Positions 8,097-30,471 of a stretch of 64,000 bases of DNA are shown here, piece after piece. This DNA is from Candidatus Palauibacter sp. (lineage in GTDB: Bacteria > Gemmatimonadota > Gemmatimonadetes > Palauibacterales > Palauibacteraceae). Position 1 is the first letter of the stretch. Every line of letters begins with the position of its first letter. The DNA lies in assembly GCF_965213655.1 (NCBI RefSeq), contig NZ_CBDBZT010000003.1, positions 1,927,733-1,991,732 of the forward strand, given 5' to 3'. Both the position numbers and the translations under genes were made by a program. The notes beneath the pieces are model-generated. The model made no database searches. It was not told where the DNA came from and was given only the letters and a program-made list of their open reading frames with translations.

Positions 8097-8206
8097 CGTC
8101 ACCTCCAGCGGAAACCTGCTACGTCCAGCGTCATCCATCATTGTCCAGCATGTCCGTCGTTGTCCGTCGTTCGCGGGACACCGGGTCATCGTCGGTCAGC
8201 CCCCGC

Positions 8207-12071: not shown

Positions 12072-13317
12072 TTACCGTCGCGAGATGCGGTATCGGTAGA
12101 GGTCGGGTGTCCCGAACTCGCCTTCGCGAACACCCCACACGTATTTCCTGCCGACGTAGCGTAAGCTCAAGTCTTCCGGCGCACCCACGTGGGCCAGTTC
12201 CTGCGTCATTGGATCAAAGACGCGCCATCTCATTCCATCAGCGTCCTGCTGCGCGACCCACGTCGTTCCGTCGGCAGCCATCAGCACCCCTCCGCCCAAC
12301 CAGTTGCGGGCGTCGGATCTGACGCCTGGAAGGTACTCGGGCGTATACAAGGCGTCCGCAATCGTTCTTCTCACGGACTCAATCTCCCCTGGCCCTGGCG
12401 GCGAATCCTTCGCTCACTCCATCAAGAAACGACTTGATTTCGCTCTTCTGCAGGTCGGCCGCGACGAACTCAACCGATCTGGCACCCCTTGTCCTGCCAT
12501 CCGTATCGAGCCACTGGAGCACGTAGCGCCCTGCCCTACGCTCCGTCCCACGACCCCTGACGACGACGAACCCATCCCCGTTCGGTGAGAACGCCAACAG
12601 GTCAATCGTTGACCACGGTTGCGGGGTCGCGGCGACGATCCCGCCGGGTAGCTCGAATTGGAGCCACAGGGTTGAGGCATCCAGTGCGACAACGTCGACG
12701 ACCCCGCCGGTCTCCGCCAAGAGCAGCGCGAGCTCTCGCTCGAACCGCCCCTCGGGTTCCGCTTCGGCCACTTGGGTGCTCCCCGCGGATTCCAGCAACA
12801 GGAACCGTCCACCAACCAGGAGCGCGATCGGCATCATCCCCAGACCCCGCGCCGATGAGGCGTCGGGGACGCGCCTTGCACCGACGATACGCCCTGCCAG
12901 GTCGAAGTAGTGTGCGAGCCGCTGTGCGCCGTCTATCGCCCAGAGGGTGTCGTTCTGGATGCCGATCGATGGTGTTATCCGGAATTCGCCGGGCCCGTCA
13001 CCCTCCCGGCCGACTGTTCCTCTGTAGTCTCCATCTGGTCCCAAGAGGTGGACTGCCACGTCGCCTGTCCCCGTAACGAACGCGGATCGGTCCGGTCCGA
13101 TGGCCACCGAGAGGATCCTGCCGAACGGCAACGAGTCCGATCCCGACAATCGCATCTCATCGACCAGACTCCAGGACTCAACCTGCCCGTTCAGTGCCTT
13201 GGCTGACACGCCCCACATCAGACTCAGGAAGCTGCCCAGGACCCCAAGGCGAGTCCATCGTCCCCTCCGAAACGTCGACCGAGTCACGGCCTCACCCTCC
13301 TGCGCATCGGGTATCAT
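12072..13317 (-). pseudogene. NHL-repeat 6-bladed beta-propeller protein, paralog 3, interrupted by a frameshift near 12374-12381
   Basis: ORF 12379-13317 (signal peptide, REGDGPGEF NHL motif) and ORF 12072-12374 (…GTPDLYRYRISRR, homologous to the C-terminus …GVPTVALYGLVAN of the 26868 paralog) are adjacent and in different frames. Together they span the length of the intact paralogs. Confidence 0.5.
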
Positions 13318-16560: not shown

Positions 16561-16750
16561 GGCGATCGACCTTCTTCCGATTGATACCTGGATGAACCGG
16601 ACCGCCAAGATGCTTGTTGTCGCAGGGCCCGGCCACGGTCGTTCGCGGGCGGTGGCAACCGCCTGCTTGTGGACACCACAGGATGAGGATTATGGTATGT
16701 ATGACACTAGATACCACATACGACAGAATCACCATTTCAGGAATCGTGCC

Positions 16751-17032
16751 ATGGCCATACCGGATCACGCAGCGGGCAACATGGTCGAATGCGAGCGGGT
16801 GGCGATCGACGCCGCGGGGCGGCTGGTCGTGCCCGGTAGATTCCGGAAGGCTCTGGGAATCCAGGGGCCACAGCACCTGGTCATTGGACTTGAGGGCGAT
16901 ACGCTTCGGCTGAGCACGACGGACGGTGTGATTCGCCGCTACCAGGAGCTGGCCCGACGGCGGAAGCGGACCCCCGGCAGTGTCGTGGATGCGTTTATTG
17001 CGGAGCGGCGTCGAGAGGCTGCCGAGGAGTGA
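16751..17032 (+). CDS. vapB: VapB-type antitoxin (AbrB/MazE/SpoVT swapped-hairpin DNA-binding domain)
   Basis: ATG 16751 with an AGGAA SD. MAIPDHAAGNMVECERVAIDAAGRLVVPGRFRKALGIQG... The stop overlaps the vapC start by 4 nt. Confidence 0.75.
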   Translation: MAIPDHAAGNMVECERVAIDAAGRLVVPGRFRKALGIQGPQHLVIGLEGDTLRLSTTDGVIRRYQELARRRKRTPGSVVDAFIAERRREAAEE

Positions 17033-17424
17033 TGCCGGCATCGGTGTTGCTGGATGCGTCGGCGCTCCTGGCCCTCGTTTTCGAGGAGGACGGGGCTCCG
17101 CAGGTTCGGGAAAACGTGCGTCGGGGCGCGGCGATCTCGGCCGTGAACGCCGCCGAGGTGGCTGCGCGTCTCGGCGGTGAAGGTTGGACGCCCGATGAAG
17201 TTGAGGGGTTCTTCGCTGAATCGAACATCGATGTGTTACCCTTCGATTCCTCGGCCGCACTTCTGAGCGGATCATATCGCCGGTTGACCCGGCACATCGG
17301 CCTGAGCCTGGGCGACAGAGCGTGCCTGGCCACCGCCCGGCAACTCGGCCTCACAACGCTCACCGCCGACAGGGTGTGGACCGAGTTGGAGCTGGACGGC
17401 GTCGACATCGTCTGCATCCGCTGA
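17029..17424 (+). CDS. vapC: PIN-domain toxin VapC
   Basis: 131 aa with the PIN signature (LLDASALLALVFEED..., acidic residues, ...LTADRVWTELELDGVDIV). It overlaps vapB in an ATGA arrangement. Confidence 0.85.
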   Translation: MMPASVLLDASALLALVFEEDGAPQVRENVRRGAAISAVNAAEVAARLGGEGWTPDEVEGFFAESNIDVLPFDSSAALLSGSYRRLTRHIGLSLGDRACLATARQLGLTTLTADRVWTELELDGVDIVCIR

Positions 17425-17489: not shown

Positions 17490-18647
17490 CTACCTGTCGG
17501 TTTCGACGAGTTCGTAGAGGGCCACGGCGGGGACGCCGAACGCGTCGCGTTGCCGGACGAGCACCCAGTCCCGGCCGGCGTCGAGCAGGACAAAGCCGCC
17601 GGGCATCGTGAGGCGCCGCAGCCACACGCCGTCCCGGTCCAGGAGGTGCAGTTTCTCGCCGGGCGCCCGCCAGCGGTACGTCCTGATCCATATGCCCCCG
17701 TCCGGCAGGGCGAGGAGGGATTCGTAGGCGGGGAAGCGCTCGGGTAGGTACGCCCGCCTCTCCGGCCAGACCTCGCGCTCGAAGCGGCGGCGGCCCTCCC
17801 TGTCGGAATACCGGTCCAGACCCGAGAGGTAGTCCCGGTACCTGTCGACCTGCTGGTCGGTGACGGCGAGGTCCGGGCCGAGCCAGCGAGCGGTGCGGGT
17901 GACCCGGCCTGTCCAGTCCAGATGCTGCAGTTCGTAGTCGTCGGATGTACCGAACCATACGCCCGTGTCCACGGCTGCCAAGACCATGCTTCGTCCCCAG
18001 TAGCTCGGCATGACGCTGCCGCGGGAAATGCGGGTCCGCTCTGCGCCCGGAATCCCGGACTGCAGGACGGTCACGCTGTCGGTCACGGCAACCCTCAGAG
18101 ACACGCGCCAGCGCCACTGCTCGCCCACGGTCCGCTCCAAGACGCTTCGCCGATCCTCCGGCCACGGCGTGAAGACGAGGCGACCATCGGTTGAGCAGGC
18201 GGGTTCCCCGTACGGATTCACGCCGATGGAGTTGAGCGTGCGCGTGTCGACGACGTTGCCGTCGAGATCCAGTTGGGTGATGCGGTCCTGGACCCAGTCG
18301 AAGACGGTGACCGCCGCACCGGGGCAATTCCGCAGGAGGCGCAGGCCCCGGTATTCTCCGGGCCCGTCCCCTTCCCTCCCGTTCGTCCACAGGTGTCGTC
18401 CGTTCGCGTCGTATCGGCGCACGTTGTCGCTCTGCTCGTCCACGACGACGAAGCTGCCGTCGTCCAGACGAATGGCGCCCGTCACGTCGCCGAAGATGTA
18501 CTCGAGCGGACCATCGAGCGCGCCGATGCGGACCAGCGGCTTCTCGGCCAGCGTCAGATCGGGGTCGCGCGCTTCGGCGCTCTCTACGACATCCTGCGCC
18601 CCAATGGACGCGGCCGCGAAAGCTGCGAGAGTGAGCGTCGAGATCAT
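17490..18647 (-). CDS. secreted NHL-repeat 6-bladed beta-propeller protein, paralog 1
   Basis: Real start at ATG 18647 (MISTLTLAAFAAASIGAQD signal). The track's 18965 start adds an S/R/P-rich artefact. About 70% identical to the 26868-28052 product (PLVRIG.DGPLEYIFG.VTG..RL.DGS.VV.DEQS.N.RRYDANGRHLWT.GR.G.GPGEY.GLRLLRNCPGA...). Confidence 0.75.
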   Translation of the reverse strand: MISTLTLAAFAAASIGAQDVVESAEARDPDLTLAEKPLVRIGALDGPLEYIFGDVTGAIRLDDGSFVVVDEQSDNVRRYDANGRHLWTNGREGDGPGEYRGLRLLRNCPGAAVTVFDWVQDRITQLDLDGNVVDTRTLNSIGVNPYGEPACSTDGRLVFTPWPEDRRSVLERTVGEQWRWRVSLRVAVTDSVTVLQSGIPGAERTRISRGSVMPSYWGRSMVLAAVDTGVWFGTSDDYELQHLDWTGRVTRTARWLGPDLAVTDQQVDRYRDYLSGLDRYSDREGRRRFEREVWPERRAYLPERFPAYESLLALPDGGIWIRTYRWRAPGEKLHLLDRDGVWLRRLTMPGGFVLLDAGRDWVLVRQRDAFGVPAVALYELVETDR

Positions 18648-18675
18648 CGGCCGTGGATCACCGCAGTCGCCGCAG

Positions 18676-20697
18676 TCAAGACGAAGCCGGCGCGTCGGCC
18701 GTAGTGCGCAGGGCGTCGACGCGGCGGGCGACGCCTTCTTCGTAGCCGGATTCCTCGAAGCCTTCGCGCTTGAACTGGATGAACCCCGCTTGATCCAGGT
18801 AGAACGTCGTCGGATAGCCGAGGATCTCGTAGTCGAGGGCGAGCCCCTGCTCGTCGAACAGGACGGGGAACGTGAAGCCGCCCTCCTCGATCTGCCGCGC
18901 GACCTCTTCGCGGGGAGATCCGGCCGTGGCGACGGTGAGGAACACGACATCCTCGTCGTCTTCATACGTTTTCAGGAGTTCGACGAAATGTGGGAACTCC
19001 AGGAGGCACGGACCGCACCAGGTCGCCCAGAACTTGAGCACGACGATCTTCCCCTCGAGGTCGCTCAGCCGCCACTCGATTCCGGTCTGGTCCGTGAGCA
19101 CGAACGCCGGGGCCTCGCGCTCGAGTCGATCGCCCAGTTCGCGCCGCTCCATCTCCTCCTCGACGACGGGGCGCCGTACGGCGAGCCGCTCCTCGACGGT
19201 TTCGGGAGACAGATCAGCGGCTGCGGCGGCTTCTTCCGCGAGGGGCTCAAACCGGGAACCGCCGAAGGCGATCGCCTCCACGAAGGCGTCGAGCGCTTCC
19301 ACCGGCCGGTCCGTGCGGAGGAGATGACGCCCGTACTCCCCAAGCGTGGTCTCACGTCTGGACTCGGTCGCCACCTGCTCGAACAGTTCGCCCGCCGCTT
19401 CGATCTCGCCGAGTTGCGTGAGGGCGCGGGCCTGGAGGATGCGGGCCCTGTCGATCAGGATCTGCCGCGACCGCTCGCGCTCGTCGCCGCGGACGCCGGG
19501 GTACAGGTATCCCGGGCTGTGTGCGCGCAAGTCTCCCTCGATCGCGGTCGCCGCATCGAGCACGGCCCGCGGCTCGATCCCGAAGTAGAGCAGGCCGCGG
19601 AGTGCGGAAAACACACCCTCACGCCAGCGGACCACGGCCATCGAGGCATCGAGCAGCTGCTCGGCCGCCTCCGGGTCGAGCGGCGCATGCGGTGGTTCTG
19701 CCGCGACGGTCGCCGCCCCCCACACCGTCCTGCTGCTCGGCGCATCACCGGCGATTGAAGCGAGCACACGCTGCGTCACAACCGTGTGGTGCCGGTCTAC
19801 CCACGCGCCGCGGCGCCCGAGATCCCGTGACTTCAACCCCTCGGCGGCGAGGCGCCCCATGTCGACCGTACTGTCCGCATGGCCGAGCCGGGCCATATTG
19901 AAGTCCACGGTCAGATCCCAGTACCGCAGGTCATCCGCCAACACACCCCGGTCGGGCGCCGCCTCGAGTCGTTCCAGCCAGCGGTCCGCGTCGCCTTCCC
20001 GCCGGAGGATCCCGAAGTCGTCGTATCCCGCCGCGAGCCGGTACAGGACCGGGGCCGCAACGTCCGCATCGTCTTCGGCCCGGGCCGCGATCGCGTCGAG
20101 CGCCCCCGCGATGGAATCCCTCACGACCTGTGCCCGTTCGCCCTCCTCCCTATCGGCGAGCGCGGCACGGAGCGCATCGGCGGCGTGGAGCAGGATCTGG
20201 TCATCCGGCCGCAGCGCCCGTACCTTGGCGAGGATCGCGCCGTACGCGTCGAGCTGTCCGAGGTCCTCCGCCGCGTCCTGTGCTTCGCTGTAGATGACGG
20301 GCCGGGCCGGCGCGTGGCGGAGTGCCTCCGGGAGGACCTGGAGGATTCTTTCTCCGTACCTCCGGTCGGTCTCGAAGATGCCGGCCCAGCGAAGATCGTG
20401 GATGTAGCCTTCCCAGGCAGCGGAATCGCCGGGTTCCAGTTCGAGCACGCGCCGCCAGGCCCGCACGGCGGCCGCATGCAGGCTGAAATAGCTGGCGAGC
20501 GTGGCGTACTGCCGGTGCGCCTCGGCGTCGTCGGGCGATGCGGCGCGCGCCGAGTCGTAGCGGGCCATGGCGCGCTCGAACTCGACGGCTTCCGCATCGG
20601 CGGCCGCGTCGGCCATCAGTTCGGCGTGCGAGCGGGCGTCGCCACAACCCGCGAGGACCGATAGACACACCCCCGTGAGGATCAGATGCCGCCTCAT
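18676..20697 (-). CDS. lipoprotein with an N-terminal TPR-like helical domain and a C-terminal TlpA/thioredoxin-fold thiol-disulfide oxidoreductase domain
   Basis: Start ATG 20697 (MRRHLILTGVCLSVLAGCGD lipobox). The C-terminal KIVVLKFWATWCGPCLLEFPHF carries the thioredoxin CxxC motif. It lies 28 nt upstream of the paralog-1 propeller, co-directional. Confidence 0.8.
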   Translation of the reverse strand: MRRHLILTGVCLSVLAGCGDARSHAELMADAAADAEAVEFERAMARYDSARAASPDDAEAHRQYATLASYFSLHAAAVRAWRRVLELEPGDSAAWEGYIHDLRWAGIFETDRRYGERILQVLPEALRHAPARPVIYSEAQDAAEDLGQLDAYGAILAKVRALRPDDQILLHAADALRAALADREEGERAQVVRDSIAGALDAIAARAEDDADVAAPVLYRLAAGYDDFGILRREGDADRWLERLEAAPDRGVLADDLRYWDLTVDFNMARLGHADSTVDMGRLAAEGLKSRDLGRRGAWVDRHHTVVTQRVLASIAGDAPSSRTVWGAATVAAEPPHAPLDPEAAEQLLDASMAVVRWREGVFSALRGLLYFGIEPRAVLDAATAIEGDLRAHSPGYLYPGVRGDERERSRQILIDRARILQARALTQLGEIEAAGELFEQVATESRRETTLGEYGRHLLRTDRPVEALDAFVEAIAFGGSRFEPLAEEAAAAADLSPETVEERLAVRRPVVEEEMERRELGDRLEREAPAFVLTDQTGIEWRLSDLEGKIVVLKFWATWCGPCLLEFPHFVELLKTYEDDEDVVFLTVATAGSPREEVARQIEEGGFTFPVLFDEQGLALDYEILGYPTTFYLDQAGFIQFKREGFEESGYEEGVARRVDALRTTADAPASS

Positions 20698-20767
20698 GGA
20701 ATTCGCGCCTGTGGACGTCGAGTTGCCAGACGCGAGCGATGCCGGGATGAATCGCACGAACCGGTGA

Positions 20768-21364
20768 TCACGTCTGGTCAATTCTAGGTGTCACGATCAG
20801 GATGAGCACGGGTTCCCCCGCGGAGCGGCGAGCCGATCCCAACACCACTCTCTGACCATCGCGGATCGTGACCGATGCTTCGAGCAGGGGCCCCGACAGA
20901 TCCATCAGGACGCCCCCCCACTCACGCCCCTCATACCTCCGGGAGCCGGAGGTCCCCTCGGTGAGGGTCACCTTGGCACGTACGTGCCTCTCGTACCGGC
21001 GTGTGGTAACCTCGGCGTGGATCGTCAGGGGTGTCTCCGAATCATCAGCGAAGACTCTCTGGGACCCGGTGCCGCCAAAGGCGACGTTCGAGGTCCGGGC
21101 CAGGCCGACATTCAGCATCGAGGTCGACAGGAGCCGGTATCCCTCGAAGTTGAACAGCTTCCTGAGTTCGCTCACGACGTCGCTGATCTCGGGGTCGTCA
21201 TCGGTGAAGCCGTCCGCCTCGACCAGGTGAAAGAAGAGCTGCACGTTCCGGACGGGCTCCACGGGCTCCTCCGACTCCTGCGCGCTTACGACGCCCGGAA
21301 GCGTGCCGAGGGCCAGCGCCAGGATCAAAGCGCATCGGATACTCCTTCTCGCATTCTCGATCAT
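20768..21364 (-). CDS. secreted hypothetical protein
   Basis: 198 aa with signal peptide MIENARRSIRCALILALALGTLPGVVSAQ and a GGAGGAGAG SD. Its ATG overlaps the stop of the upstream anti-sigma-like gene (TGATG arrangement on the - strand). Confidence 0.55.
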   Translation of the reverse strand: MIENARRSIRCALILALALGTLPGVVSAQESEEPVEPVRNVQLFFHLVEADGFTDDDPEISDVVSELRKLFNFEGYRLLSTSMLNVGLARTSNVAFGGTGSQRVFADDSETPLTIHAEVTTRRYERHVRAKVTLTEGTSGSRRYEGREWGGVLMDLSGPLLEASVTIRDGQRVVLGSARRSAGEPVLILIVTPRIDQT

Positions 21365-21729
21365 CAGTCACTCTCCTCCGGGCTGAGCAGCCATACGACG
21401 GCGATGTCGGGATCATTCGTGGGGAAGACCACGAACGGCCTGTCGGCCTCCACATCCATTTCGCTCACCATGCTGCGTGGAGGGGACGCAGGGGGGGGGC
21501 CGACTTCTTCGATAGCTCCGTTGGGCAACAGGATCAGGGCCGCCATGACGGCGGCCGCCGCGAGCGGGCCCACGGTCCACCGGCGCCACACGAGTCGCCG
21601 CTGCACGGGCGTGGCATGCTCGGGGGCTATGGCAGGCAGGCCTTCGCTGAGCTGGTTTGCCAGCGCCGACAGGACGGCGTGCATGTTCCGTGCGTCCCGT
21701 GCGATGCGCTCGGCGTCTCGTTCAGCCAT
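21364..21729 (-). CDS. putative anti-sigma factor (small single-pass membrane protein)
   Basis: 121 aa with one TM helix (WTVGPLAAAAVMAALILL). It overlaps the 3' end of the ECF sigma gene by 8 nt, the classic sigma/anti-sigma arrangement. No Zn-binding HxxxCxxC motif is seen. Confidence 0.5.
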   Translation of the reverse strand: MAERDAERIARDARNMHAVLSALANQLSEGLPAIAPEHATPVQRRLVWRRWTVGPLAAAAVMAALILLPNGAIEEVGPPPASPPRSMVSEMDVEADRPFVVFPTNDPDIAVVWLLSPEESD

Positions 21730-22309
21730 CGGTCCCCCTGGTGTCCGTCTCCGTGGGTCGCGCCAACATCTTTTTCCGCATCCTGCGCCGCGCGCGAAGC
21801 AGGTGTACGCGCAGCGTGTTCGGGTTCATCCCCAGCAGCCTCGCCGCTTCCGCGGGTCTCAGTCCCTGCAGATCCACCAGATCGAAGACCTCCCGCTGCC
21901 TCATGGACAGTCCGCCCAGCAGCGACCGAATCAATCGCATGGTTCTCTTCATCTCGATGTCATCGAGCGGATCCTCCAGTAGCGGCGCCTGGACCTCCGC
22001 CATCCACTCCGCCCTCTCGGCCAACCGCCGGTCCCGCCGCTTGCTTCGCCGGAGGTCCAGGCTGGCGTTCCGAGTAATCCGGTAGACCCAGCTCGTCACC
22101 CTGGCGCGACCATCGAAGCTCCCGATCGATCTCAGCGTCTTCATCAGGACGAGCTGCGCGATGTCCTCCGCATCATCCGGATCGCCGGTCATGACCAGGG
22201 CCCACCGGCACACGAGGGGACGGAGAGCACCCACCAGCCTATCGAGCGCCCCTCGCTCTCCCTTCCCGGCCTTTTCGGCCAACTCCAGGATCTCTCGGTC
22301 GGAGAGCAT
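21722..22309 (-). CDS. ECF (sigma-70 family group 4) RNA polymerase sigma factor
   Basis: Region 2 (DAEDIAQLVLMKTLRSIGSFDGRARVTSWVYRITRN) and region 4 HTH (LSMRQREVFDLVDLQGLRPAEAARLLGMNPNTLRVHLLRARRRMRK). ATG 22309. Confidence 0.85.
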   Translation of the reverse strand: MLSDREILELAEKAGKGERGALDRLVGALRPLVCRWALVMTGDPDDAEDIAQLVLMKTLRSIGSFDGRARVTSWVYRITRNASLDLRRSKRRDRRLAERAEWMAEVQAPLLEDPLDDIEMKRTMRLIRSLLGGLSMRQREVFDLVDLQGLRPAEAARLLGMNPNTLRVHLLRARRRMRKKMLARPTETDTRGTDG

Positions 22310-22444
22310 GGGGCGCTCGGTCCCTTTTCTTCTCGTGTGGTTTCGAGAGGTGAAACGCCGGCAGAGGGAGGAGCGTTTACCCGGCGTGCCGTCGCAAGAG
22401 CTGTTCCTCGCCCGCCGAGGGGTGGCGTGGCGCGCTGAGCCCGT

Positions 22445-25400
22445 CTAACGCCGTTCGGGCGGCGGCTCGGGGAGACCGCGGCTGAAGAGGACCTCGAGGT
22501 TCGGCGGCAGAGGCAGTGCGCCGGGTTCGCCCGCGGCGGCGGCCAGCGCGGAGGCCCGGTCCAGCAGGATGGCCCGCACGCGGCCGCTGGCGGGATCGCG
22601 CAGGATCGCGGAGGGGCGATCCGTCGTTCGGTCGAGGGCCGCCGATCCCGTCGGACCCGTGAGTTCGATTGCGTCGAGGAGGCCGGCCCATTCGGGACGA
22701 TAGGGGACGCCGAACACGAAGCCCGCCCGGCCTTCCCGATCCGCCACGGGCGTCATCGCGAAGCTGATCGAGAACAGGATCTCGCCGTTGCCCGTCCGCC
22801 CGACGAGCCGACTTGGACCCGCAGAGTCCGGGAGCGCCGGGGGCGCTTCGATGGCGAAGGCGGGGCGCAGATAGGGCGTGCCGTCCACCTCCGTGCCGCC
22901 CCACAGGAGGAGCGTGGGCTCCGGCGACGCCGCGCGATCCGCCGCCGCTTCGCTGGCCAGGCGGTAGCGGAGCGCACCCGAAAAATGGTACTCGCTGATC
23001 CAGTTCGGATCACAGTAGGACATCAGATCCGACACCGTCGGCGGTATCAGGACCTCCTGGCCGGAACGGGAGTCGAGGCCCCACGCACCGATGGCTCCGC
23101 CACGGTGGGGGTAAGCGGGATCCACCGCGGCTCGGACACCGCAGGGGGCATGCCAAAGCCGCATGTTGTGGCCGAGTTCGTGCGCCACCGTTCTCACCAC
23201 ATCCGGTCCGCCTCCGGCGAGTCGGACATAGCTCGTCCGGCCGGGGATCCAGGCCACGCCCCAGGCGCCCGTGGCTTCCCCGGAGAGCACTGCCATCCAA
23301 TAGCCGGTCCCACCCTCCATGTAACGGACGACACCCACCTCATCGAGGAGACTGTCCGAATCGTTGCTGGTGGTCCACACGGGCCCATGAGCCTGTACGG
23401 ACAGGTCACCGACCGGCATGAGGTTGTGAAGCTCCCCGAGCAGCTCGTGGCCCTCGGGATCCGCCGCCATCTCCGCGGCGGTCCTCACTGCCGCGGAATC
23501 CGGACCGCTCCGCCAGAGGAATGGCACCACGGTCAGATTGAAGGGCGGCATCGCCCGAACCGGCACGGCCCTCCGGCCCGACTCGGGAATCCGAGTCGAC
23601 ACACCAAGACCGGGATCCAGCGTCCCGGCCGGATCGATTTCGACCACCATCTCGAGGCCGGGCCGGATCACCTCGCCCGGAATCCACACGTTGGCGGAAC
23701 GGTCCAGCGCACGCTCCGCATCGGCGATTCGGGTCGGCATGGGTGTCGACTGTCCCGGGACGTCGACCGTGTAGATCTCACCGCCACCGACGAAGAAGGT
23801 CGCCCGGGCCGGAGGGATCGGCTCGCCGGTGCTCTCCTCTGTTGTGACGAAGATGCGCAGGAGCGCCGTCTCGCCGGCAATGAGCGACACAGGGAAGTCC
23901 CGCGACTGCACCGCCTGAGTCAGGTACGCCCCGGAACCGGCGTCCGCTACCGACTCGCATGGGGGCAGGCGCACGAGGCCCGACCACTCCGGGTCGACGG
24001 CTCCGCCTGCCACGCACAAGCCGGTCCCCCTCCCTTCGAACCGCGACAGCGCCGGGAGTTCCCTGAGACTCGGCGGCAATGGGCCGGTCAGTCCTGCATT
24101 GCCCGCCAGATCCAGCCAATCGAGGCGTGTCATCGCGCCGAGTTCGGGAGGCACCGGCCCCTGGAGATGGTTGTGACCAAGCAGCAGTGTCTCCAGACTC
24201 CGGAGGTTCCCCAACTCGGCCGGAATCGGACCCGAGAGACTGTTGAGCCTCAGGTTGAGTTCACCATCCATGGGGTAGGCTCCACGCGCGCCGAGCGCGC
24301 CAAGTTCGGGGGGGATCGGCCCGGCCAGTTCGTTGCCGTCAAGGGCCAAACCCCGAATGCTCCTGAGGGAGCCAAGCTCGGGGGGGATCTCTCCGGACAG
24401 ATGGTTGAATCCCAGGTACAGGGTCTCGACGGAGGGCAGGTCCGCGAGCTCCGGCGGTATCTGACCTTCCAGCTCGTTGTTGTCCAGCCATATGACGATC
24501 ACTTCCGACAGGTTCGCCAACTCCGGCGGGATCGGTCCAGTCAGCCGGTTATTGCTGAGCAGCAGTTCCTCGAGTGTCGACAGGTTCCCCAGTTCGGGGG
24601 GGATCGGGCCACTCAGCCGGTTTGAGTCAAGATGCAGGTTCGTCAACGCCGGAAAGGCGCCCAACTCGGGCGGTATCGGACCGGAAAGCTGGTTGTCCCT
24701 GAAGTTGAACCACTCGAGCCCCTCAAGCTCGATCAGCGCGGGAGGGATCCCGCCTGTCAGCCAGTTGTGGGGCAGTTCCAGGCTCCGGAGCGCGGCGAAC
24801 TGACTAAGCTCCGCTGGTATGGGGCCGCGCAGGTTGTTCGACGGGAGACTCAGCCACGCCACATTCCCATCAGCGTCCGTCTCAACGCCGTACCAGTCCC
24901 CCAGCGGCGCGTCGCTCAGCCAGTTGTCGCGCCTCTCCCAGCGCTCTCCTTCCGTCGCCTCGTACAACAGGCCGAGAATCTCGCGATCCGTGAGACGCGG
25001 ACATTGCTCATCCGTTCCCGACCTGACGGGTATCGCCTCCAGCCAGGCTCGGAAGTGTGGTGACGGCGGCACGCAGAGTTCCGTACCCCCGTAGCGAAAC
25101 TCCTCCAGCGCGAGCGAGGACAGAGCCTGAGGGATCGAGCCCTCCAGGGCATTCCCTCCGAGTCGAAGCACGGTCATTTGCTGCAGCAGTGTGATCACGA
25201 GCGGAATGCGTCCCGTCAGCCCATTACGCGACAGATCGAGGCTGCTGACGCGTCCGAGCGAGTCGGCGCCGATGCCGTGCCATTCTTCCAGTGCTTCGTC
25301 GCTCTGCCAGCCGGTGGACCGGACCCAGATCGCTCCGTCCATGGCTTCGAACAGGCCCGCGAGGGTGGATCGATCCGCTTCGTTACAGCGGGGCCCCACC

Positions 25401-26719
25401 GCATCTCTCTGGCGCAGCCACCGCTCGAAGCTCGTCGTCCCCGGAGCACAGAGACCGCCGGCTCCCGCCCATCTGAAGCTGTCAAGGTTCGTGAGATCGA
25501 CGAATGAGGACGGGATCGCTCCAGTCAACGCGTTCTCGTCCAAGAACAGCCGTTCAAGCATGCGGAGGCCGGAAAGGTCGGCCGGAACCGGGCCACTCAG
25601 TTTGTTGCGGAACAGGTTGAGGAAACTCAACTCGGACAGGGCCCCCAACTCCGGCGGGATCGGACCGCTGAGTTGGTTCGACTCGAAGCTTATTCTGCGC
25701 AGATTGACGAGCCTGCCCAGCGTCGGCGGGATCGGACCGGTAAGCTCGTTCCATCCGAGATCGAGGTTGCCGAGACGGGCCGCATTCCCGATTTCGGGCG
25801 GGAGCGGTCCCGAGATGCCGTTCCGGTAGAGGTTCAACTCTTCCAGGTGTGACAGGTCTCCGACTTCCGTGGGGAGAGTACCGATCAGGTTGTTCTCGGG
25901 CAGGTGCAGGCTCGTCACCCTTCCGCCCGCGTCCGTCTTCACGCCATGCCATTGCCCCAGCGGCTCGTCGCTCAGCCAGCCGTCGCGATTCCTCCAGCCG
26001 GGACCGCCGGCTGATCGATACAGCGCGTTGAGGGCGGCCCGCTCCGGGTCCGGGTCCGGGACGTTGATCGCAGAGGTCCCGGTGATCGGACCGGACTGGG
26101 CGGTGATGGTCGCCATGCCCTCGGCGAGCCCCCGCACCAGCCCACCGTCGTCGACGGTCGCGACTGTGGGGTCGCTCGAACTCCACGCGAAGACCGTGCC
26201 CGACACCGGATGGCCGTTTGCGTCCCGCGCCTCCGCCGACAGCCGCGCCGTGTCGCCAATGGCGAGTGTGGCTGCCGATGGCGTGATCCCCACCCAAGCC
26301 ACGGACGGCCGCACCGACACGCGGGCCGTCCCCGTCACGGATCGGGCCTGCGCCGTGACCTCCGCAGTACCCGCGCCGGTCGCCGTCACGAGGCCAGCCG
26401 GGTCCACCGCCACCACCGACGTGTCACCGCTCGACCAGGACACCGCGGCGCCCGTTATCACCTGGCCCGTCTGGTCGCGCACCTCCGCCCCCAATCGCAG
26501 GGTGCCTCCCAAGGCGCTCATTTCGGCCGGGGCCGGGGTCACGGTCACCGAGGTCGGTTGCGGCGAGGGGGTCGGCGGCGGCGGAGGAGGGGTCGGCGCC
26601 GTCGAAGCGTCTCCGCAGGAGAGGCCGGCAACGAGCCCGAACAACAGGATGGTCCGGTCTCGCCGCCGGATCAGGGCACCGCCACCCTGCGATGTGTCGC
26701 CCAATAGTTGTGTCGCCAT
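22445..26719 (-). CDS. giant surface lipoprotein: 2x Big_2 Ig-like domains, 3x (plant-type LRRNT-like cap + plant-specific LRRs + Cys-pair C-cap) modules, C-terminal metzincin-type Zn-metallopeptidase domain
   Basis: I place the start at ATG 26719 (…IRRRDRTILLFGLVAGLSCGD lipobox). The upstream codons of the track ORF from 26761 fall in an AT-rich non-coding-looking patch. Pro-rich linker and Big_2-like blocks (VTAQARSVTGTARVSV, ATITAQSGPITGTSAINV). Dozens of LxxLxLxxNxLSGPIPPELGNL repeats. Three caps of the form ...W..D.WLSDEPLGQWHGV.TD..GRVTSL.L..NNL.G.IP. HELGHNMRLWH (HExxHxxxxxH) plus the Met-turn-like SDLMSY. Confidence 0.85.
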   Translation of the reverse strand: MATQLLGDTSQGGGALIRRRDRTILLFGLVAGLSCGDASTAPTPPPPPPTPSPQPTSVTVTPAPAEMSALGGTLRLGAEVRDQTGQVITGAAVSWSSGDTSVVAVDPAGLVTATGAGTAEVTAQARSVTGTARVSVRPSVAWVGITPSAATLAIGDTARLSAEARDANGHPVSGTVFAWSSSDPTVATVDDGGLVRGLAEGMATITAQSGPITGTSAINVPDPDPERAALNALYRSAGGPGWRNRDGWLSDEPLGQWHGVKTDAGGRVTSLHLPENNLIGTLPTEVGDLSHLEELNLYRNGISGPLPPEIGNAARLGNLDLGWNELTGPIPPTLGRLVNLRRISFESNQLSGPIPPELGALSELSFLNLFRNKLSGPVPADLSGLRMLERLFLDENALTGAIPSSFVDLTNLDSFRWAGAGGLCAPGTTSFERWLRQRDAVGPRCNEADRSTLAGLFEAMDGAIWVRSTGWQSDEALEEWHGIGADSLGRVSSLDLSRNGLTGRIPLVITLLQQMTVLRLGGNALEGSIPQALSSLALEEFRYGGTELCVPPSPHFRAWLEAIPVRSGTDEQCPRLTDREILGLLYEATEGERWERRDNWLSDAPLGDWYGVETDADGNVAWLSLPSNNLRGPIPAELSQFAALRSLELPHNWLTGGIPPALIELEGLEWFNFRDNQLSGPIPPELGAFPALTNLHLDSNRLSGPIPPELGNLSTLEELLLSNNRLTGPIPPELANLSEVIVIWLDNNELEGQIPPELADLPSVETLYLGFNHLSGEIPPELGSLRSIRGLALDGNELAGPIPPELGALGARGAYPMDGELNLRLNSLSGPIPAELGNLRSLETLLLGHNHLQGPVPPELGAMTRLDWLDLAGNAGLTGPLPPSLRELPALSRFEGRGTGLCVAGGAVDPEWSGLVRLPPCESVADAGSGAYLTQAVQSRDFPVSLIAGETALLRIFVTTEESTGEPIPPARATFFVGGGEIYTVDVPGQSTPMPTRIADAERALDRSANVWIPGEVIRPGLEMVVEIDPAGTLDPGLGVSTRIPESGRRAVPVRAMPPFNLTVVPFLWRSGPDSAAVRTAAEMAADPEGHELLGELHNLMPVGDLSVQAHGPVWTTSNDSDSLLDEVGVVRYMEGGTGYWMAVLSGEATGAWGVAWIPGRTSYVRLAGGGPDVVRTVAHELGHNMRLWHAPCGVRAAVDPAYPHRGGAIGAWGLDSRSGQEVLIPPTVSDLMSYCDPNWISEYHFSGALRYRLASEAAADRAASPEPTLLLWGGTEVDGTPYLRPAFAIEAPPALPDSAGPSRLVGRTGNGEILFSISFAMTPVADREGRAGFVFGVPYRPEWAGLLDAIELTGPTGSAALDRTTDRPSAILRDPASGRVRAILLDRASALAAAAGEPGALPLPPNLEVLFSRGLPEPPPERR

Positions 26720-26760
26720 ATATATATGTAAGATATATAAGCAGCTATGGAATCGGGGCA
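26717..26760 (-). promoter_or_regulatory. AT-rich island (catatatatatgtaagatatataagcagctatgg) immediately upstream of the giant lipoprotein start; promoter / 5' leader candidate
   Basis: A conspicuous AT-rich run in a very GC-rich genome. Codons through it (tta tat atc tta cat ata tat) are atypical for this genome's coding regions. Confidence 0.35.
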
Positions 26761-26867
26761 AGCGACGGAGCAGGTGGCAACAGTGGGTGGCGCGCCGTCG
26801 GATGGATCGGTGGAGTCGCCGGAGGAGCGAACCAGAGACGTGGAGCTACGGCAGCACTACGTCACCG

Positions 26868-28052
26868 TCAGTTCGCGACCAGTCCGTAGAGGGCGACGGT
26901 CGGAACGCCCAGTTCGTCGCGCTGGCGCAGGAGGACCCAGTCCCGCCCCGCGTCGAGGACGACGCCGCTCGGCAGCGTGAGGCGGCGAAGCCATACGCCG
27001 TTCGCGTCCAGAAGATGCAGCTCCTCGCCCGCAGCCAGCCAGGCGTGGGTCTTGACCCAGAAGGCGCCGTCCGGCAGTGGGATAAGAGCCTCGTACGCCG
27101 GGAAGCGCTCCGGAAGCTGATCCCGGATGTCGGGCCAGACGTCCCGCTCGAAGTTCCGCCGGGCTTCGTCCTCGTCGTACCGCGCCAGCCACCCTTCCCG
27201 ATAGCTGTCGACGCGGTCGCCCGTCACCGTGAGGTCGGGACCGCCCCAGCGGGCCACCCGCGTCACCCGACCCGTCCAGTCCAGGTGCTCGAGTTCGTAG
27301 TCATCGGCCGTCCCGTACCACACGCCGGTGCCGGCAGGCGCGAACTCCATGTCACGCCCCCACCAGCGCGGACCGCTGGCCCCGGCCTGGATGAAGAACC
27401 GTTCGGCGCCCGGGATCCCCGAGCGGAGGGTGACGACGCTATCCCTCTCGAAGGATTCGAGGACCGTTTGCCACCGGTAGAGGTCCCCCTCGGCCAGGTC
27501 TTCCTCGTAGCTCGCACCCATGTCGTCGGGCCACGGCGTGTAGACCAGGCGGCCGTCAGGCGCACAGAAGGGGTCGTTGTAAGGGCGGACGCCGGCTGCA
27601 AGGAGCGAGCGCGTCGCGAGTACGTTGCCATCGAGATCCAGCTCGGTGATGCGGTCGAGACTCCAGTCGAAGACGGTGAGCGGTGCCCCGGGGCAGTTCC
27701 TGAGCAGCCGCAGCCCCTTGTACTCCCCCGGCCCCTCGCCCGATCGCCCGCTGGTCCACAGGTGACGACCGTTCGCGTCGTAACGGCGGAGGTTGCCGCT
27801 CTGCTCGTCCGCGACGACGACGCTTCCGTCCTCGAGACGAACCCCACCCGTCACGTTGCCGAAGATGTATTCGAGCGGACCGTCGACGATCCCGATCCGC
27901 ACCAGCGGCTCGTCGGCCAGCGTCAGGTCGGCGTCACGCGGGGCTGCGCTCTCAACGACCTCCTGGCCGGCGAGCGCCTGCGGCGCCATGAGAATCGAAA
28001 CGGTGAGCAGTAGTACGGCGCCGCCTGGCAGGCCGAACCTGGGTCGGTGCAT
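26868..28052 (-). CDS. secreted NHL-repeat 6-bladed beta-propeller protein, paralog 2
   Basis: 394 aa with signal peptide MHRPRFGLPGGAVLLLTVSILMAPQALAGQ and SGEGPGEY NHL motifs. Close paralog of the 17490-18647 product. Confidence 0.8.
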   Translation of the reverse strand: MHRPRFGLPGGAVLLLTVSILMAPQALAGQEVVESAAPRDADLTLADEPLVRIGIVDGPLEYIFGNVTGGVRLEDGSVVVADEQSGNLRRYDANGRHLWTSGRSGEGPGEYKGLRLLRNCPGAPLTVFDWSLDRITELDLDGNVLATRSLLAAGVRPYNDPFCAPDGRLVYTPWPDDMGASYEEDLAEGDLYRWQTVLESFERDSVVTLRSGIPGAERFFIQAGASGPRWWGRDMEFAPAGTGVWYGTADDYELEHLDWTGRVTRVARWGGPDLTVTGDRVDSYREGWLARYDEDEARRNFERDVWPDIRDQLPERFPAYEALIPLPDGAFWVKTHAWLAAGEELHLLDANGVWLRRLTLPSGVVLDAGRDWVLLRQRDELGVPTVALYGLVAN

Positions 28053-28232
28053 TTGCGCCCCGCGGGGGAGGTGTGGACAGGGAACATCGATCTCGGACTG
28101 GGGACACAGGTTCGACGCGAGAGAGTTGCGTCGCGTTTACGTCATCTGCCACGAGGCTCGATCCATCGTTCACGCAATACGAAAGTCGTATGATTGGGAC
28201 AGACTACACGTTACCCATGGTACCGAGGTTCA

Positions 28233-30471
28233 GATGCGTTCCCTTTCCGTCGCCCTCGTTCTTCCCGCCGCAGTGCTCGCGCTGCCCCCGCAGATGCCGC
28301 TCGCCGCGCAGGAGCGGCCATTCACGTTCATGGATGTGCAGGAGATGAAACGCGCCGGCTCATGGACGCCGAGTCCGGACGGCGCGTGGATGCTCTACAC
28401 CGTGACGACCCCCGACTGGGAGGCGGCCGAGTCCCAGACGGACATCCACCTCGTGTCGCTGAGCGAGGGCGTCCCGTCGGATCGCCGGCTCACCTACACC
28501 GAGGACAAGGACGAACGCAGCCCGACCTGGGGTCCGGACGGGTCGTTTTTCCTCTTCGCCTCCAACCGGGATGGGGACGACACCCAGCTCTACATGATGC
28601 GCCACGACGGGGGCGAGGCCCGGAAGATCACCGACGCGGAGGAAGGCGTGTCCGGCTTCGCGTTCAGCCCCGACGGGCGCTGGCTCGTGTATCGCTCCGG
28701 GGAATCCAACCGGGAGCAACTCTACCGGCTGCCGGCCGACGACCTCGCGGACGCCGAGCCCGAACAGATCACCGACGGCGAGGCGGGCGTGGACCAGTGG
28801 GACTTCTCCCCTGACGGAAGCCGCGTCTACTTCGCGCGCCCCGATTCGTTCGACGAGGACGAGGTGAAGCGGCGCGAGGAGGGCTTCACGGTCGACGTCC
28901 GGAACGCGGTCACCCCGCTCTCGAGCCTGTGGAGCGTCGAGGTCGAGTCGGCCGCCGAGGAGCGCGAGACCGACGACCCCTCCTACAGCGTGAACAGCTT
29001 CACGATCTCCGACGACGGACGCTGGATCGGGATCACGGGCGGCTCGACGAAGCGCTACGAGCGCAACATCACTGCGCAGCGGCTCTATGCGGACCTCCAC
29101 CTCATGGAAGTGGCGACGGGCGAGATCGAGCGCTTGACCGACAACTACGAGGTCGGCGAGGGCGGACTCAGCTTCTCCCCGGATGGCCGCTGGATCGCTT
29201 TCTCCGCGCCGGACGAGATGGAGCGCTACTCGATGACGGAGAACCGCATCTACATCCGCGAGCTCGGGGACCGCGGGGGGGCGTTCCGGAAGCTGGGCGC
29301 GGAGTTCGACCAGAGTTCGAGCGTCGGGTTCTGGTCGGAGGATGCGAACACGATCTACTTCAACGCCGGCGTGAAGGTAACGACGCAGTTGCACGCCCTC
29401 GACGTGGAGACCGGCGCGGTGCGGCAGCTCACCGACGAGCTCGCGGCGCTCTCGGTGTCCCGGAATGACGACACGGGCACGCTTCTCATCAACTACAGCG
29501 ACCCGAAGACGCCGCCCACCGTATTCGCCGTCGCGAGCGTGGACGATGTCCCGGACCGCTCGAAGTGGACACAACTCGTCGACGTGAACCCCCAACTGCG
29601 CGAGGTGGCGTTCGGCGAGGAGGCGGAGGTCAACTGGCGTTCGTCCGATGGGAAGATGGTCGGAGGCGTTCTCGTCTATCCCGTGGACTACGAGGAGGGG
29701 ACGCGCTATCCGCTCATCGTCGCGATCCACGGGGGGCCGGCGTCGGCCGACATCCTGCGCTTCAACGGCGGGTACAGCGCGCAGGTGTACGCGGGGGCGG
29801 GCTACGCCGTGCTCAAGCCCAACTACCGCGGCTCGCGGAACTACGGGAACGCGCACCGCACGGACATCGTCGGCGACTACTTCACGATGGGCTACGAGGA
29901 CATCATCACGGGCGTGGACCACCTGATCGCCGAGGGCATCGTGGACGGCGACCGCATGGGCGCGCTCGGCTGGAGTGCGGGCGGCCACTGGTCCAACTGG
30001 ATCCTCACGCAGACGGACCGCTTCAAGGCGATCAGTTCGGGCGCCGGGACGATGAACTGGATCAGCATGTACGCGCAGAGTGATGTGCAGCGTAACCGGC
30101 AGTTCTACGTGGGCGACGGCTTCCTGTACGAGGACTTCGACACGTACTTCGACCAGTCCCCGCTCAAGTACATCGCGAACGCGAAGACGCCGACGATGAT
30201 CCACGTGGTGGAGGGCGACCCGCGCGTGCCGAGCCCGCAGTCGGTTGAACTCCACATGGCGCTCAAGAAGCTGGGCGTCCCGACGGAACTGTTCATGTAT
30301 CCCGGCCGGAGCCACGGCATCCCCGACCCGCGCAACCGGCTTGTGAAGGCGGTGAGCGAGATGGCCTGGATGGATTACTACGTGCGCGGCATGGGAGAGA
30401 AGTTCCAGTGGCGACAGGTGCTCGAAACGCTTGAGGCCGAGGAGGCCCCGACGGTCGTCTCGGAGCGTTAG
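28233..30471 (+). CDS. secreted S9-family serine peptidase (prolyl oligopeptidase / acylaminoacyl-peptidase-like, TolB-type propeller N-domain)
   Basis: Start ATG 28233 (MRSLSVALVLPAAVLALPPQMPLAAQE signal). The track start 27793 is an antisense artefact. Repeated FSPDG propeller blades. C-terminal hydrolase domain with GWSAGG (GxSxG) and the ...D...H tail. Confidence 0.85.

Follow-up and report, generated by a model that had tools for sequence, protein, structure and literature searches.

A candidate autoregulated ECF sigma factor module with exported propeller proteins and a secretin-like third gene in Candidatus Palauibacter

Pairs of a sigma factor of the extracytoplasmic function (ECF) class and an anti-sigma factor are common, and those whose third partner is defined and whose regulon can be read have taught how envelope signals cross the periplasm. 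In Escherichia coli, the ECF sigma factor RpoE, the single-pass anti-sigma factor RseA and the periplasmic partner RseB are encoded side by side and autoregulated through a promoter of the AAC...CGT class. In the CnrH-CnrY-CnrX system of Cupriavidus, the single-pass anti-sigma factor is very short, and the periplasmic sensor is a protein of its own, the helical metal sensor CnrX. In cell-surface signalling (FecI-FecR-FecA, FoxI-FoxR-FoxA), the secretin-type periplasmic domain of the TonB-dependent transducer binds the anti-sigma factor at its C-terminal periplasmic part, protecting it from proteolysis and so governing its breakdown (PMC11637429). Here we describe a gene cluster of Candidatus Palauibacter in which an ECF sigma factor, a short anti-sigma factor and a 198-residue secreted protein, sec198 (together the triad), stand among genes for two beta-propellers (prop1 and prop2), a TlpA/ResA-like lipoprotein and a giant leucine-rich repeat (LRR) protein. 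It lies in a stretch of 64,000 nt with about 67% G+C, called the window throughout. The Palauibacter lineage has been reported from sponges, corals and marine sediments (PMC10469786); the paper on the Palauibacterales does not discuss these genes, whose closest homologues are annotated as Candidatus Palauibacter.

We read the region as an autoregulated ECF module with a predicted regulon that includes the propellers and, by co-transcription, the TlpA-like protein, and not as one seven-gene machine; the probability of this reading is, in our estimate, about 0.6. The seven co-directional genes, all on the minus strand between 17490 and 28052, were supported by third-position GC and open reading frame (ORF) structure and were found where the earlier note on this DNA had placed them:

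26868-28052, minus strand: prop2, a secreted NHL-like beta-propeller with six predicted blades, 394 aa, without Pfam match
22445-26719, minus strand: the giant gene, a Big_2, plant-type LRR and HExxHxxxxxH putative zinc metalloprotease lipoprotein of 1424 aa, with its ATG at 26719
21722-22309, minus strand: ECF sigma factor, 195 aa, with Sigma70_r2, Sigma70_r4_2 and TIGR02937 above cutoff
21364-21729, minus strand: anti-sigma factor, 121 aa, single-pass, N-terminally shortened
20768-21364, minus strand: sec198, 198 aa, with a signal-peptide-like N-terminus; probable truncated secretin homologue
18676-20697, minus strand: TlpA/ResA-like lipoprotein with a LAGC lipobox, a WCGPC site and redoxin domains above cutoff
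17490-18647, minus strand: prop1, the secreted six-bladed propeller paralogue (predicted fold), 385 aa, without Pfam match
28115-28140, minus strand: ECF-type promoter-like motif GTAAACG-N16-CGT, 62 nt 5' of the prop2 ATG
22355-22380, minus strand: candidate autoregulatory ECF-type promoter GTAAACG-N16-CGT, 45 nt 5' of the sigma ATG
26720-26745, minus strand: AT-rich tract TTATATATCTTACATATATAT, which abuts the ATG of the giant gene and may be its own promoter

The sigma factor scored above cutoff with Sigma70_r2 (60.9 bits, cutoff 24), Sigma70_r4_2 (47.7 bits, cutoff 25.7) and TIGR02937 (93.1 bits, cutoff 42.9). With the sigma-2 and sigma-4 regions only, in about 200 aa, its architecture is that of an ECF (group 4) sigma-70 factor. 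It reached no NCBIfam equivalog, the best being NF058625 with 93 bits against a cutoff of 130, and the main text of the ECF re-classification paper holds no matching group description and mentions neither secretin nor Gemmatimonadetes. The anti-sigma gene overlaps the stop of the sigma gene by 8 nt and the start of sec198 by 1 nt; these overlaps show the three predicted genes as a translationally coupled set. In the anti-sigma factor, one hydrophobic segment, GPLAAAAVMAALILL, follows a basic patch (topology judged by eye) and leads to a conserved periplasmic tail, DRPFVVFPTNDPDIAVVWLL. Alignment showed this tail, DRPFVVFPTxDPDIAVVWLL, to be common to the window anti-sigma factor and the middle genes of the distant triads described below.

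The triad thus has the same three-part layout as RpoE-RseA-RseB together with a motif of the AAC...CGT class, and by analogy sec198 would be expected to act as the periplasmic partner. It differs in that sec198 is unlike the LolA-like RseB and in that the anti-sigma factor, with its 121 aa, is much shorter and shows no homology to RseA. Its visible regulon consists of propellers and a TlpA-like reductase, not of the chaperones or proteases of the RpoE regulon. With CnrH-CnrY-CnrX, the triad shares a cytoplasmic anti-sigma part of about 45-50 residues and a separate periplasmic protein. The gene order, however, is different (cnrYXH), no sequence relation exists, and sec198 is beta-rich and secretin-like.

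The regulatory part of our reading was drawn from the DNA upstream of the sigma genes. Alignment of the 220 nt upstream of all of them revealed a shared GGTAAACG-N16-CGTCTCA, a motif that we take to be of the classical ECF AAC...CGT class, as for Bacillus subtilis sigma-W, sigma-X and sigma-M. It was located 42-73 nt before the sigma ATG (43-45 nt in most) in 16/16 related loci, regardless of what lay further upstream, and its form GTAAACG-N16-CGT(C/T) extended to the distant triads (L082-L084, L088-L089). In the window, two exact copies of GTAAACG-N16-CGT were found against 0.08 expected, at 22355-22380 and 28115-28140. Three further matches with one mismatch were at chance level, and none was placed before a gene. 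On both strands of 1.46 Mb of related loci the strict motif matched 28 times, always inside this module: 21 matches preceded sigma genes, 3 preceded prop2 orthologues (L003, L006, L008) and 4 preceded a secretin-like gene (L082-L085). The last group, at L082:2108-2134 and likewise in L083-L085, is a second exact GTAAACG-N16-CGTC that falls within the 3' end of the anti-sigma gene and precedes the gene for a Secretin_N protein by about 65 nt, which suggests an internal sigma-dependent promoter for a secretin-like partner. Before the giant gene, the TlpA-like gene and prop1, no copy of the motif appeared, even with loose patterns. Hence, of the three sites at which the earlier note had looked to the sigma factor's own promoter, those upstream of 22309 and 28052 carried it and the one upstream of 26719 did not. 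A motif of such unusual specificity makes the regulon predictable from sequence in an uncultured phylum.

Conservation of the gene order was followed in two loci read directly (L001, L002) and in 79 from contigs of one genome per species, onto which the window proteins were mapped by tblastn. A triad adjoined a prop2-type propeller in all 16 triad-bearing related loci, 14 of which are GTDB species representatives, so that the order is conserved well beyond the window. Among these 14 representatives, the prop2-type gene was upstream of the triad in 12 and divergent in two. Over all loci, the order prop2-type, sigma, anti-sigma, sec198 was found in 14, the divergent arrangement being that of L035 and L038. 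The arrangements were as follows:

prop2, triad, TlpA, prop1: L001, L004, L008, L015, L017
prop2, triad, TlpA: L005, L006, L009, L010
prop2, triad, prop1: L002, L053
prop2, giant gene, triad, prop1: L040, which has the window arrangement minus TlpA and a split prop2 copy
prop2, triad only: L003, L007, with a TlpA fragment retained in L007
prop2 divergent from the triad, then a prop3-like gene: L035, L038

The prop2 orthologues of the 16 loci were 57-90% identical to prop2. The upstream copies were always of the prop2 type (70-90% identity, 13 loci) and the downstream copies always of the prop1 type (77-91%, 8 loci). From this positional orthology it follows that the propeller duplication is older than these species. 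On the same ground, the idea that the bracket arose by a recent tandem duplication was rejected, and assembly of the cluster by duplication, which had been put forward as one possible explanation of the bracketing, is not favoured.

The third gene of the triad belongs to a family of its own. We found 284 close homologues of sec198 and, by an exhaustive profile search, 332 cluster representatives, nearly all of 160-260 aa. Its domain had no Pfam match among homologues or representatives, nor in the window protein even at E<=10, and Pfam Secretin (PF00263) in particular was absent from sec198 (E<=10) and from ten diverse relatives. Longer relatives, however, are lipoproteins with an N-terminal Secretin_N domain (PF03958; P0305 with 32.9 and P0316 with 30.7 bits, cutoff 28.2), a domain that the window sec198 itself does not have. 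When a diverse family profile (A5) was compared with the PDB, 9/10 matches were secretins, and E was 0.0018 for phage pIV and 0.1-2 for PilQ and GspD. The alignments were colinear: they covered the last N domain, continued into the beginning of the secretin core and reached the 'DGQT-vvLGG' strand. A profile of close homologues (A2) gave noise only against the PDB. In the AlphaFold model of sec198 (pLDDT, the predicted local distance difference test, 70.9), InvG chains made up 5 of the 6 best Foldseek matches, with E about 1.6e-3 and template modelling (TM) scores below 0.3. Two stretches resemble the secretin core, the gate-strand motif DGQTVVLGS and the C-terminal LILIVTPRI.

These three weak, concordant lines make sec198 a probable truncated secretin homologue. 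We use this term, and not 'secretin', because there is no Pfam Secretin match and no internal repeat relation to Secretin_N. We rejected the idea that, in the sec198 relatives, the core could be a degenerate repeat of the Secretin_N domain in front of it, since hhalign found no similarity between the two (probability 0.1%). Compared with secretins proper (GspD, PilQ, InvG, phage pIV), the similarity is colinear and InvG heads the Foldseek list, but the sec198 core has about 150 residues against about 250 or more, PF00263 is not matched and all E-values are marginal. One homologue, P0148 (328 aa, 76% identical to sec198), is recorded with the CarboxypepD_reg-like domains PF13715 and PF13620 and may be a fusion or a gene-call artefact. 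Two mis-called fusions, P0353 (sigma and sec198) and P0258 (sec198 and propeller), mirror the adjacencies of the module.

Distant Gemmatimonadota also carry the triad, with different genes downstream of it: Peptidase_S13 (L082, L084, L085) or a Plug fragment (L088, L089). Wherever the context was readable, a sigma gene and then a small middle gene preceded the gene of the sec198 family, and stops and starts overlapped or nearly abutted; the short contig L087 carried the 3' end of a sigma gene. By alignment, the middle genes of the distant triads are homologous to the window anti-sigma factor. The combination of an ECF pair with a secretin-derived third partner is the most original element of the locus, and no description of it was found in the literature searched, which included the ECF re-classification paper in its main text.

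By analogy, the mode of action proposed here for sec198 would most closely parallel cell-surface signalling, next to RseB acting on RseA and CnrX on CnrY, and the Secretin_N domain of the sec198 relatives adds to this likeness. The differences are substantial. The window contains neither a TonB-dependent transducer nor a FecR domain, and the secretin-like part is free-standing and small. The Pfam family concerned is Secretin_N (PF03958), not STN, and the window sec198 is without even Secretin_N.

Several observations weigh against our reading of an autoregulated module. All evidence for it is derived from sequence. The site upstream of prop2 was exact in the window, L003, L006 and L008, carried one mismatch in L007 (ATAAAC) and persisted as a near-copy in L005, but it was degraded, displaced or absent in L001, L002, L004, L009, L010, L017, L040 and L053. 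Moreover, wherever the motif is present, the entire 5' region is conserved along with it, so that its conservation does not count as independent evidence. Several orthologous loci lack TlpA and prop1. The window anti-sigma factor does not have the HxxxCxxC motif of zinc-binding anti-sigma factors (ZAS) and offers just about 50 cytoplasmic residues; the motif is found in longer, homologous middle genes of the distant triads (HVRECDEC in L082, HLAACADC in L088). As for sec198, each of its similarities to secretins is marginal alone (profile E 0.0018; Foldseek E 1.6e-3, TM below 0.3), and the window protein matches neither Secretin nor Secretin_N of Pfam.

For some relatives, the state of the prop2 promoter may have a local cause. 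At L001:9334-9959 and L002:8134-8759, upstream of prop2, an insertion brings in genes for a MazE-like antitoxin and for Fic, and it appears to have displaced or destroyed the ECF-type promoter that prop2 has in the window.

The alternative that survives best is a coincidental neighbourhood, in which exported or 'eukaryotic-like' families merely lie beside an unrelated ECF pair and share neither regulation nor function with it. The propeller family is massively multi-copy (347 relatives; arrays in L020, L036 and L012), giant-like genes are found close to propellers in many settings that are unrelated to each other, the presence of TlpA and of the giant gene varies from species to species, and about half of the orthologous loci have lost the motif upstream of prop2, all of which speaks for this alternative. 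Chance does not readily explain why an orthologous propeller adjoins the triad in 16/16 loci when the prop2 orthologues are only 57-90% identical, nor why the sigma motif, which is without matches outside the module in 1.46 Mb, is nevertheless present before prop2. In L035 and L038, furthermore, the propeller remains beside the sigma gene despite the changed orientation. We therefore consider coincidence unlikely, although it is the alternative to be taken most seriously. In the earlier note, the possibility had been raised that the propellers are simply scattered members of a multi-copy family. This is true outside the orthologous pair, where they are scattered or arrayed, whereas the triad-linked pair is positionally conserved.

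A second alternative gives sec198 a different task. It would be a true 'mini-secretin', a small protein of the outer membrane that serves as a channel or assembly factor in exporting or anchoring the propellers and the LRR protease, and the ECF pair would merely control its expression. The resemblance to the secretin core (DGQTVVLGS, LILIVTPRI), the longer lipoprotein relatives with Secretin_N and the extra sigma motif directly before the secretin-like gene of L082-L085 are in line with such a role. A domain of about 150 aa is, however, far below the size of a channel-forming secretin core, and neither a pilotin nor inner-membrane secretion partners were found near sec198 in the contexts of the window, L001, L002 and the distant triads. 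The family also sits with an ECF sigma and an anti-sigma gene wherever the context is readable, beside downstream genes as unrelated as Peptidase_S13, a Plug fragment and propellers. We regard an export function as distinctly improbable.

A single obligate machine for envelope stress or surface sensing, co-transcribed from the seven genes together and combining redox, proteolytic, recognition and regulatory parts, would agree with the genes' common direction, short gaps, absence of terminator-like structures between genes and export-type N-termini on all products but sigma, but it is very improbable given a giant gene that is absent from its position in 15/16 loci and has its own AT-rich upstream tract, a TlpA that is absent from 6, a conserved promoter between the giant and sigma genes, and distant triads with entirely different downstream genes.

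The autoregulated module that we prefer is instead a modular unit, with at least two predicted transcription units, two dispensable genes and a bracket formed by an old pair of paralogues. At least two transcription units are predicted since the candidate promoter of the sigma operon lies downstream of the giant gene. No terminator-like site on the minus strand was found inside the cluster, including between sec198, TlpA and prop1, and no structured RNA was detected in the four intergenic gaps (fold z-scores -0.5 to +0.6). Since both the giant gene and the thioredoxin gene can be absent, we see here a regulatory unit of an ordinary kind in a form particular to this lineage. What remains of the envelope unit of the earlier note is thus an ECF-centred unit with propellers; it is not one obligate 10.5-kb unit, given the variable giant and TlpA genes and the separate promoter. 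Judged from their N-terminal sequences, all products except the sigma factor are predicted to be exported.

The giant gene is the most variable part. It occupied the window's position only in L040 and was absent from this position in 15/16 related loci; in L004 and L015 a giant-like gene lay downstream of prop1 instead, and the other triad loci had none. Elsewhere, giant-like genes are often near propellers (L012, L021, L022, L030, L032, L033, L077). The regions on either side of the cluster match L001 and L002, which makes the giant gene an insertion into a syntenic frame. An AT-rich tract, striking in a genome of 67% G+C, abuts the gene both in the window (26720-26745) and at L040:11300-11380, and could either serve it as a promoter or have been left behind by the insertion. 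The protein matched Big_2 of Pfam and, many times over, LRR above cutoff. Its best Pfam protease match was M66, with 16.8-18.7 bits below the cutoff of 20.6. The zinc motif reads HELGHNMRLWH, and among 9 homologous segments HExGHNxxLxH did not vary. The Gly at the centre of the classical metzincin motif is not conserved, and no sequence relative was found in the PDB. The metzincin call made previously rests on the invariant HExxHxxxxxH motif, with M66 of Pfam below threshold. StcE-type M66 proteases and metzincins share this motif, and M66 is the nearest Pfam family. The giant protein differs from StcE-type M66 proteases in remaining below the gathering threshold and in its fusion to Big_2 and plant-type LRR arrays, and its proteolytic activity is a prediction.

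The second dispensable gene encodes the TlpA-like protein. It scored above cutoff with AhpC-TSA (71 bits), Redoxin (58.5 bits) and Thioredoxin of Pfam and carries WCGPC and a LAGC lipobox. As an equivalog it remained below all cutoffs (ResA 78 against 170, TlpA 41 against 230 and DsbE 37 against 123 bits). The redoxin domain is preceded by an N-terminal region of about 500 aa, non-homologous and probably helical. The label of a tetratricopeptide repeat (TPR) protein, given to it earlier, rests on a single TPR_2 match below threshold, with 17-19 bits against a cutoff of 27. The redoxin domain, the WCGPC site and the lipoprotein signal are shared with TlpA/ResA-type reductases, from which the protein differs by the extension of about 500 aa and by a context without cytochrome maturation or ScoI genes. 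An orthologue was present in 10/16 triad loci; by tblastn, L002, L003, L007 (which keeps a fragment), L040 and L053 had none. A link between propellers and redoxins has further support from L011, an independent locus in which two TlpA-like redoxin genes stand among propeller paralogues that exceed the DUF5128 cutoff.

The two flanking propellers, described before as about 70% identical, turned out to be 64% identical (240/374, E 1e-172). Neither matched any Pfam family at E<=0.01, NHL (PF01436) and DUF5128 (PF17170) included, and the sole NCBIfam signal was a weak, partial match to ScyF (E 0.0021). An AlphaFold model based on 22 homologues (pLDDT 79.8, predicted TM score 0.80) shows about 25 strands, with an inserted helical hairpin and a long beta-hairpin. 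Its best Foldseek match was 4RAA (BF0058, an exported protein of Bacteroides fragilis; E 1.5e-11), followed by the NHL domains of Brat and TRIM proteins with E 4e-10 to 1e-7; the TM-scores were just 0.45-0.5. It holds, at the level of the predicted fold only, that prop1 and prop2 are six-bladed NHL-like propellers; the restriction is made because Pfam is silent while AlphaFold and Foldseek match. The six-bladed NHL assignment of the earlier note is accordingly kept for the predicted fold and dropped for the sequence, which matches no NHL family in Pfam. The predicted fold is the same as in BF0058, the exported DUF5128-DUF4934 propellers of Bacteroides (4RAA) and NHL domains, yet prop1 and prop2 match neither the DUF5128 nor the NHL profile and have the additional helical hairpin and beta-hairpin. 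Two cysteines, C120 and C163 in prop2, are invariant in the family alignment (A1), in which P0045 is identical to prop1 residue for residue.

The wider family is large, with 347 relatives in the genome scan. It is strongly expanded in Longimicrobiales genomes and forms dense arrays in L036, L011, L012 and L020, where ten tblastn segments with 26-68% identity fell on both strands within 21 kb (L020:1-21614). More distant paralogues in L011 exceeded the DUF5128 cutoff of 22.9 bits (33.8 and 30.9 bits), and precomputed PF17170 matches are on record for P0116, P0247 and P0249; our literature search found no paper on DUF5128. Copies 56-64% identical to prop2 also occur in another phylum, in metagenome-assembled genomes (MAGs) of Rhodothermales and Rhodothermaceae (L016, L018, L019, L023-L029), which suggests horizontal propeller transfer between co-resident symbionts. 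According to their isolate labels, several Rhodothermales MAGs apparently share sponge metagenome projects with Palauibacter MAGs. In the scanned loci, neither triad nor promoter motif accompanied propeller copies outside the orthologous prop1/prop2 pair, those of Rhodothermales included. Since they have no Pfam match, the propellers of this large exported family escape standard domain counts of NHL and other eukaryotic-like proteins (ELP).

A mechanism in keeping with the autoregulated module can be proposed. At rest, the anti-sigma factor would hold the sigma factor at the membrane. Sec198 may bind the periplasmic beta-tail of the anti-sigma factor and either shield it from proteolysis or relay a signal from the outer envelope. 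Once freed, the sigma factor would transcribe its own operon (sigma, anti-sigma, sec198 and, where present, TlpA-like and prop1) as well as prop2. The TlpA-like lipoprotein may keep the two invariant cysteines of the propellers in the required redox state; that it manages this cysteine pair is a guess from the adjacency of the genes here and in L011. The giant gene would have been inserted later and has an AT-rich tract of its own upstream; transcription that starts at the prop2 promoter may also run on into it.

In this lineage, which is associated with sponges and corals, the propeller and LRR proteins probably act at the surface or in contact with the host. LRR, TPR and NHL proteins are counted among the 'eukaryotic-like' classes in sponge symbionts (PMC11706023), and membership of the LRR and NHL proteins in these classes fits a host-interaction role without proving it. 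For symbiosis research, the module suggests that some of the 'eukaryotic-like' surface proteins of Palauibacter are inducible and not constitutive. The genomes with and without the reductase and the LRR protease make up a natural comparison set, and the module offers a conserved partner protein that is seemingly derived from a secretin. A bolder proposal, tentative and on balance doubtful, goes further: sigma, anti-sigma and 'mini-secretin' would constitute an undescribed three-component trans-envelope system of Gemmatimonadota, with the truncated secretin on the beta-tail of the anti-sigma factor as the outer sensor. In Palauibacter of sponges and corals it would have been recruited for host-interaction surface proteins, namely the NHL-like propellers that are invisible to Pfam and also found in Rhodothermales MAGs, their dedicated TlpA-like reductase and, in some strains, a zinc protease with plant-type LRRs.

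A further propeller gene of the window lies outside the module:

12072-13317, minus strand: frameshifted propeller gene of a distant subfamily (Pfam DUF5128-like)

The frameshift, claimed earlier, is indeed present in the sequence. The ORFs 12379-13317 and 12072-12374 are halves of one gene, and an intact homologue (P0241, 415 aa, 93% identical) spans both in two frames, with the junction at about 12380-12390. The frameshift may be biological or an assembly error. The gene had been counted as a third member of the propeller family, which stands insofar as it is a distant relative, and fails insofar as its subfamily is not that of prop1 and prop2. By tblastn, the similarity to these was E 0.012 over 57 residues; hhalign with their profile gave E 1.7e-4 and 49% probability, end to end over 344 columns. 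Its nearest Pfam family, DUF5128, scored 21.5 bits, below the cutoff of 22.9. From its sequence, this copy is placed in a remote propeller subfamily and not in the module. Split or fragmented propeller genes were also seen at L040:10001-11180, L010:12215-12761, L015:5804-6177 and in L046. They reflect either frequent pseudogenisation in the family or common assembly indel errors, which bears on the frameshift in the window.

At the downstream end of the cluster, prop1 lies 28 nt after the TlpA gene. Its start was set to the Met at 18647; a longer ORF, up to 18965, overlaps TlpA and is not backed by homologues. The cluster is flanked by two genes for serine peptidases of the Peptidase_S9 or DPP-IV type, at 14179-16608 (minus strand) and 27793-30471 (plus strand), and the flanks are syntenic with L001 and L002 in a PIN toxin, the two Peptidase_S9 genes and a pyrroloquinoline quinone (PQQ) dehydrogenase. 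The gene for the PIN-domain toxin (17029-17424, plus strand; Pfam 49 bits) lies directly downstream of prop1 on the opposite strand, as it does in L001 and L002, and the ORF upstream of it (16614-16913, plus strand), which matches no Pfam family, may encode the antitoxin. Elsewhere in the window, an 841-aa protein encoded at 5670-8195 on the minus strand carries FG-GAP_2 and LVIVD repeats and is another predicted repeat protein of the beta-propeller type.

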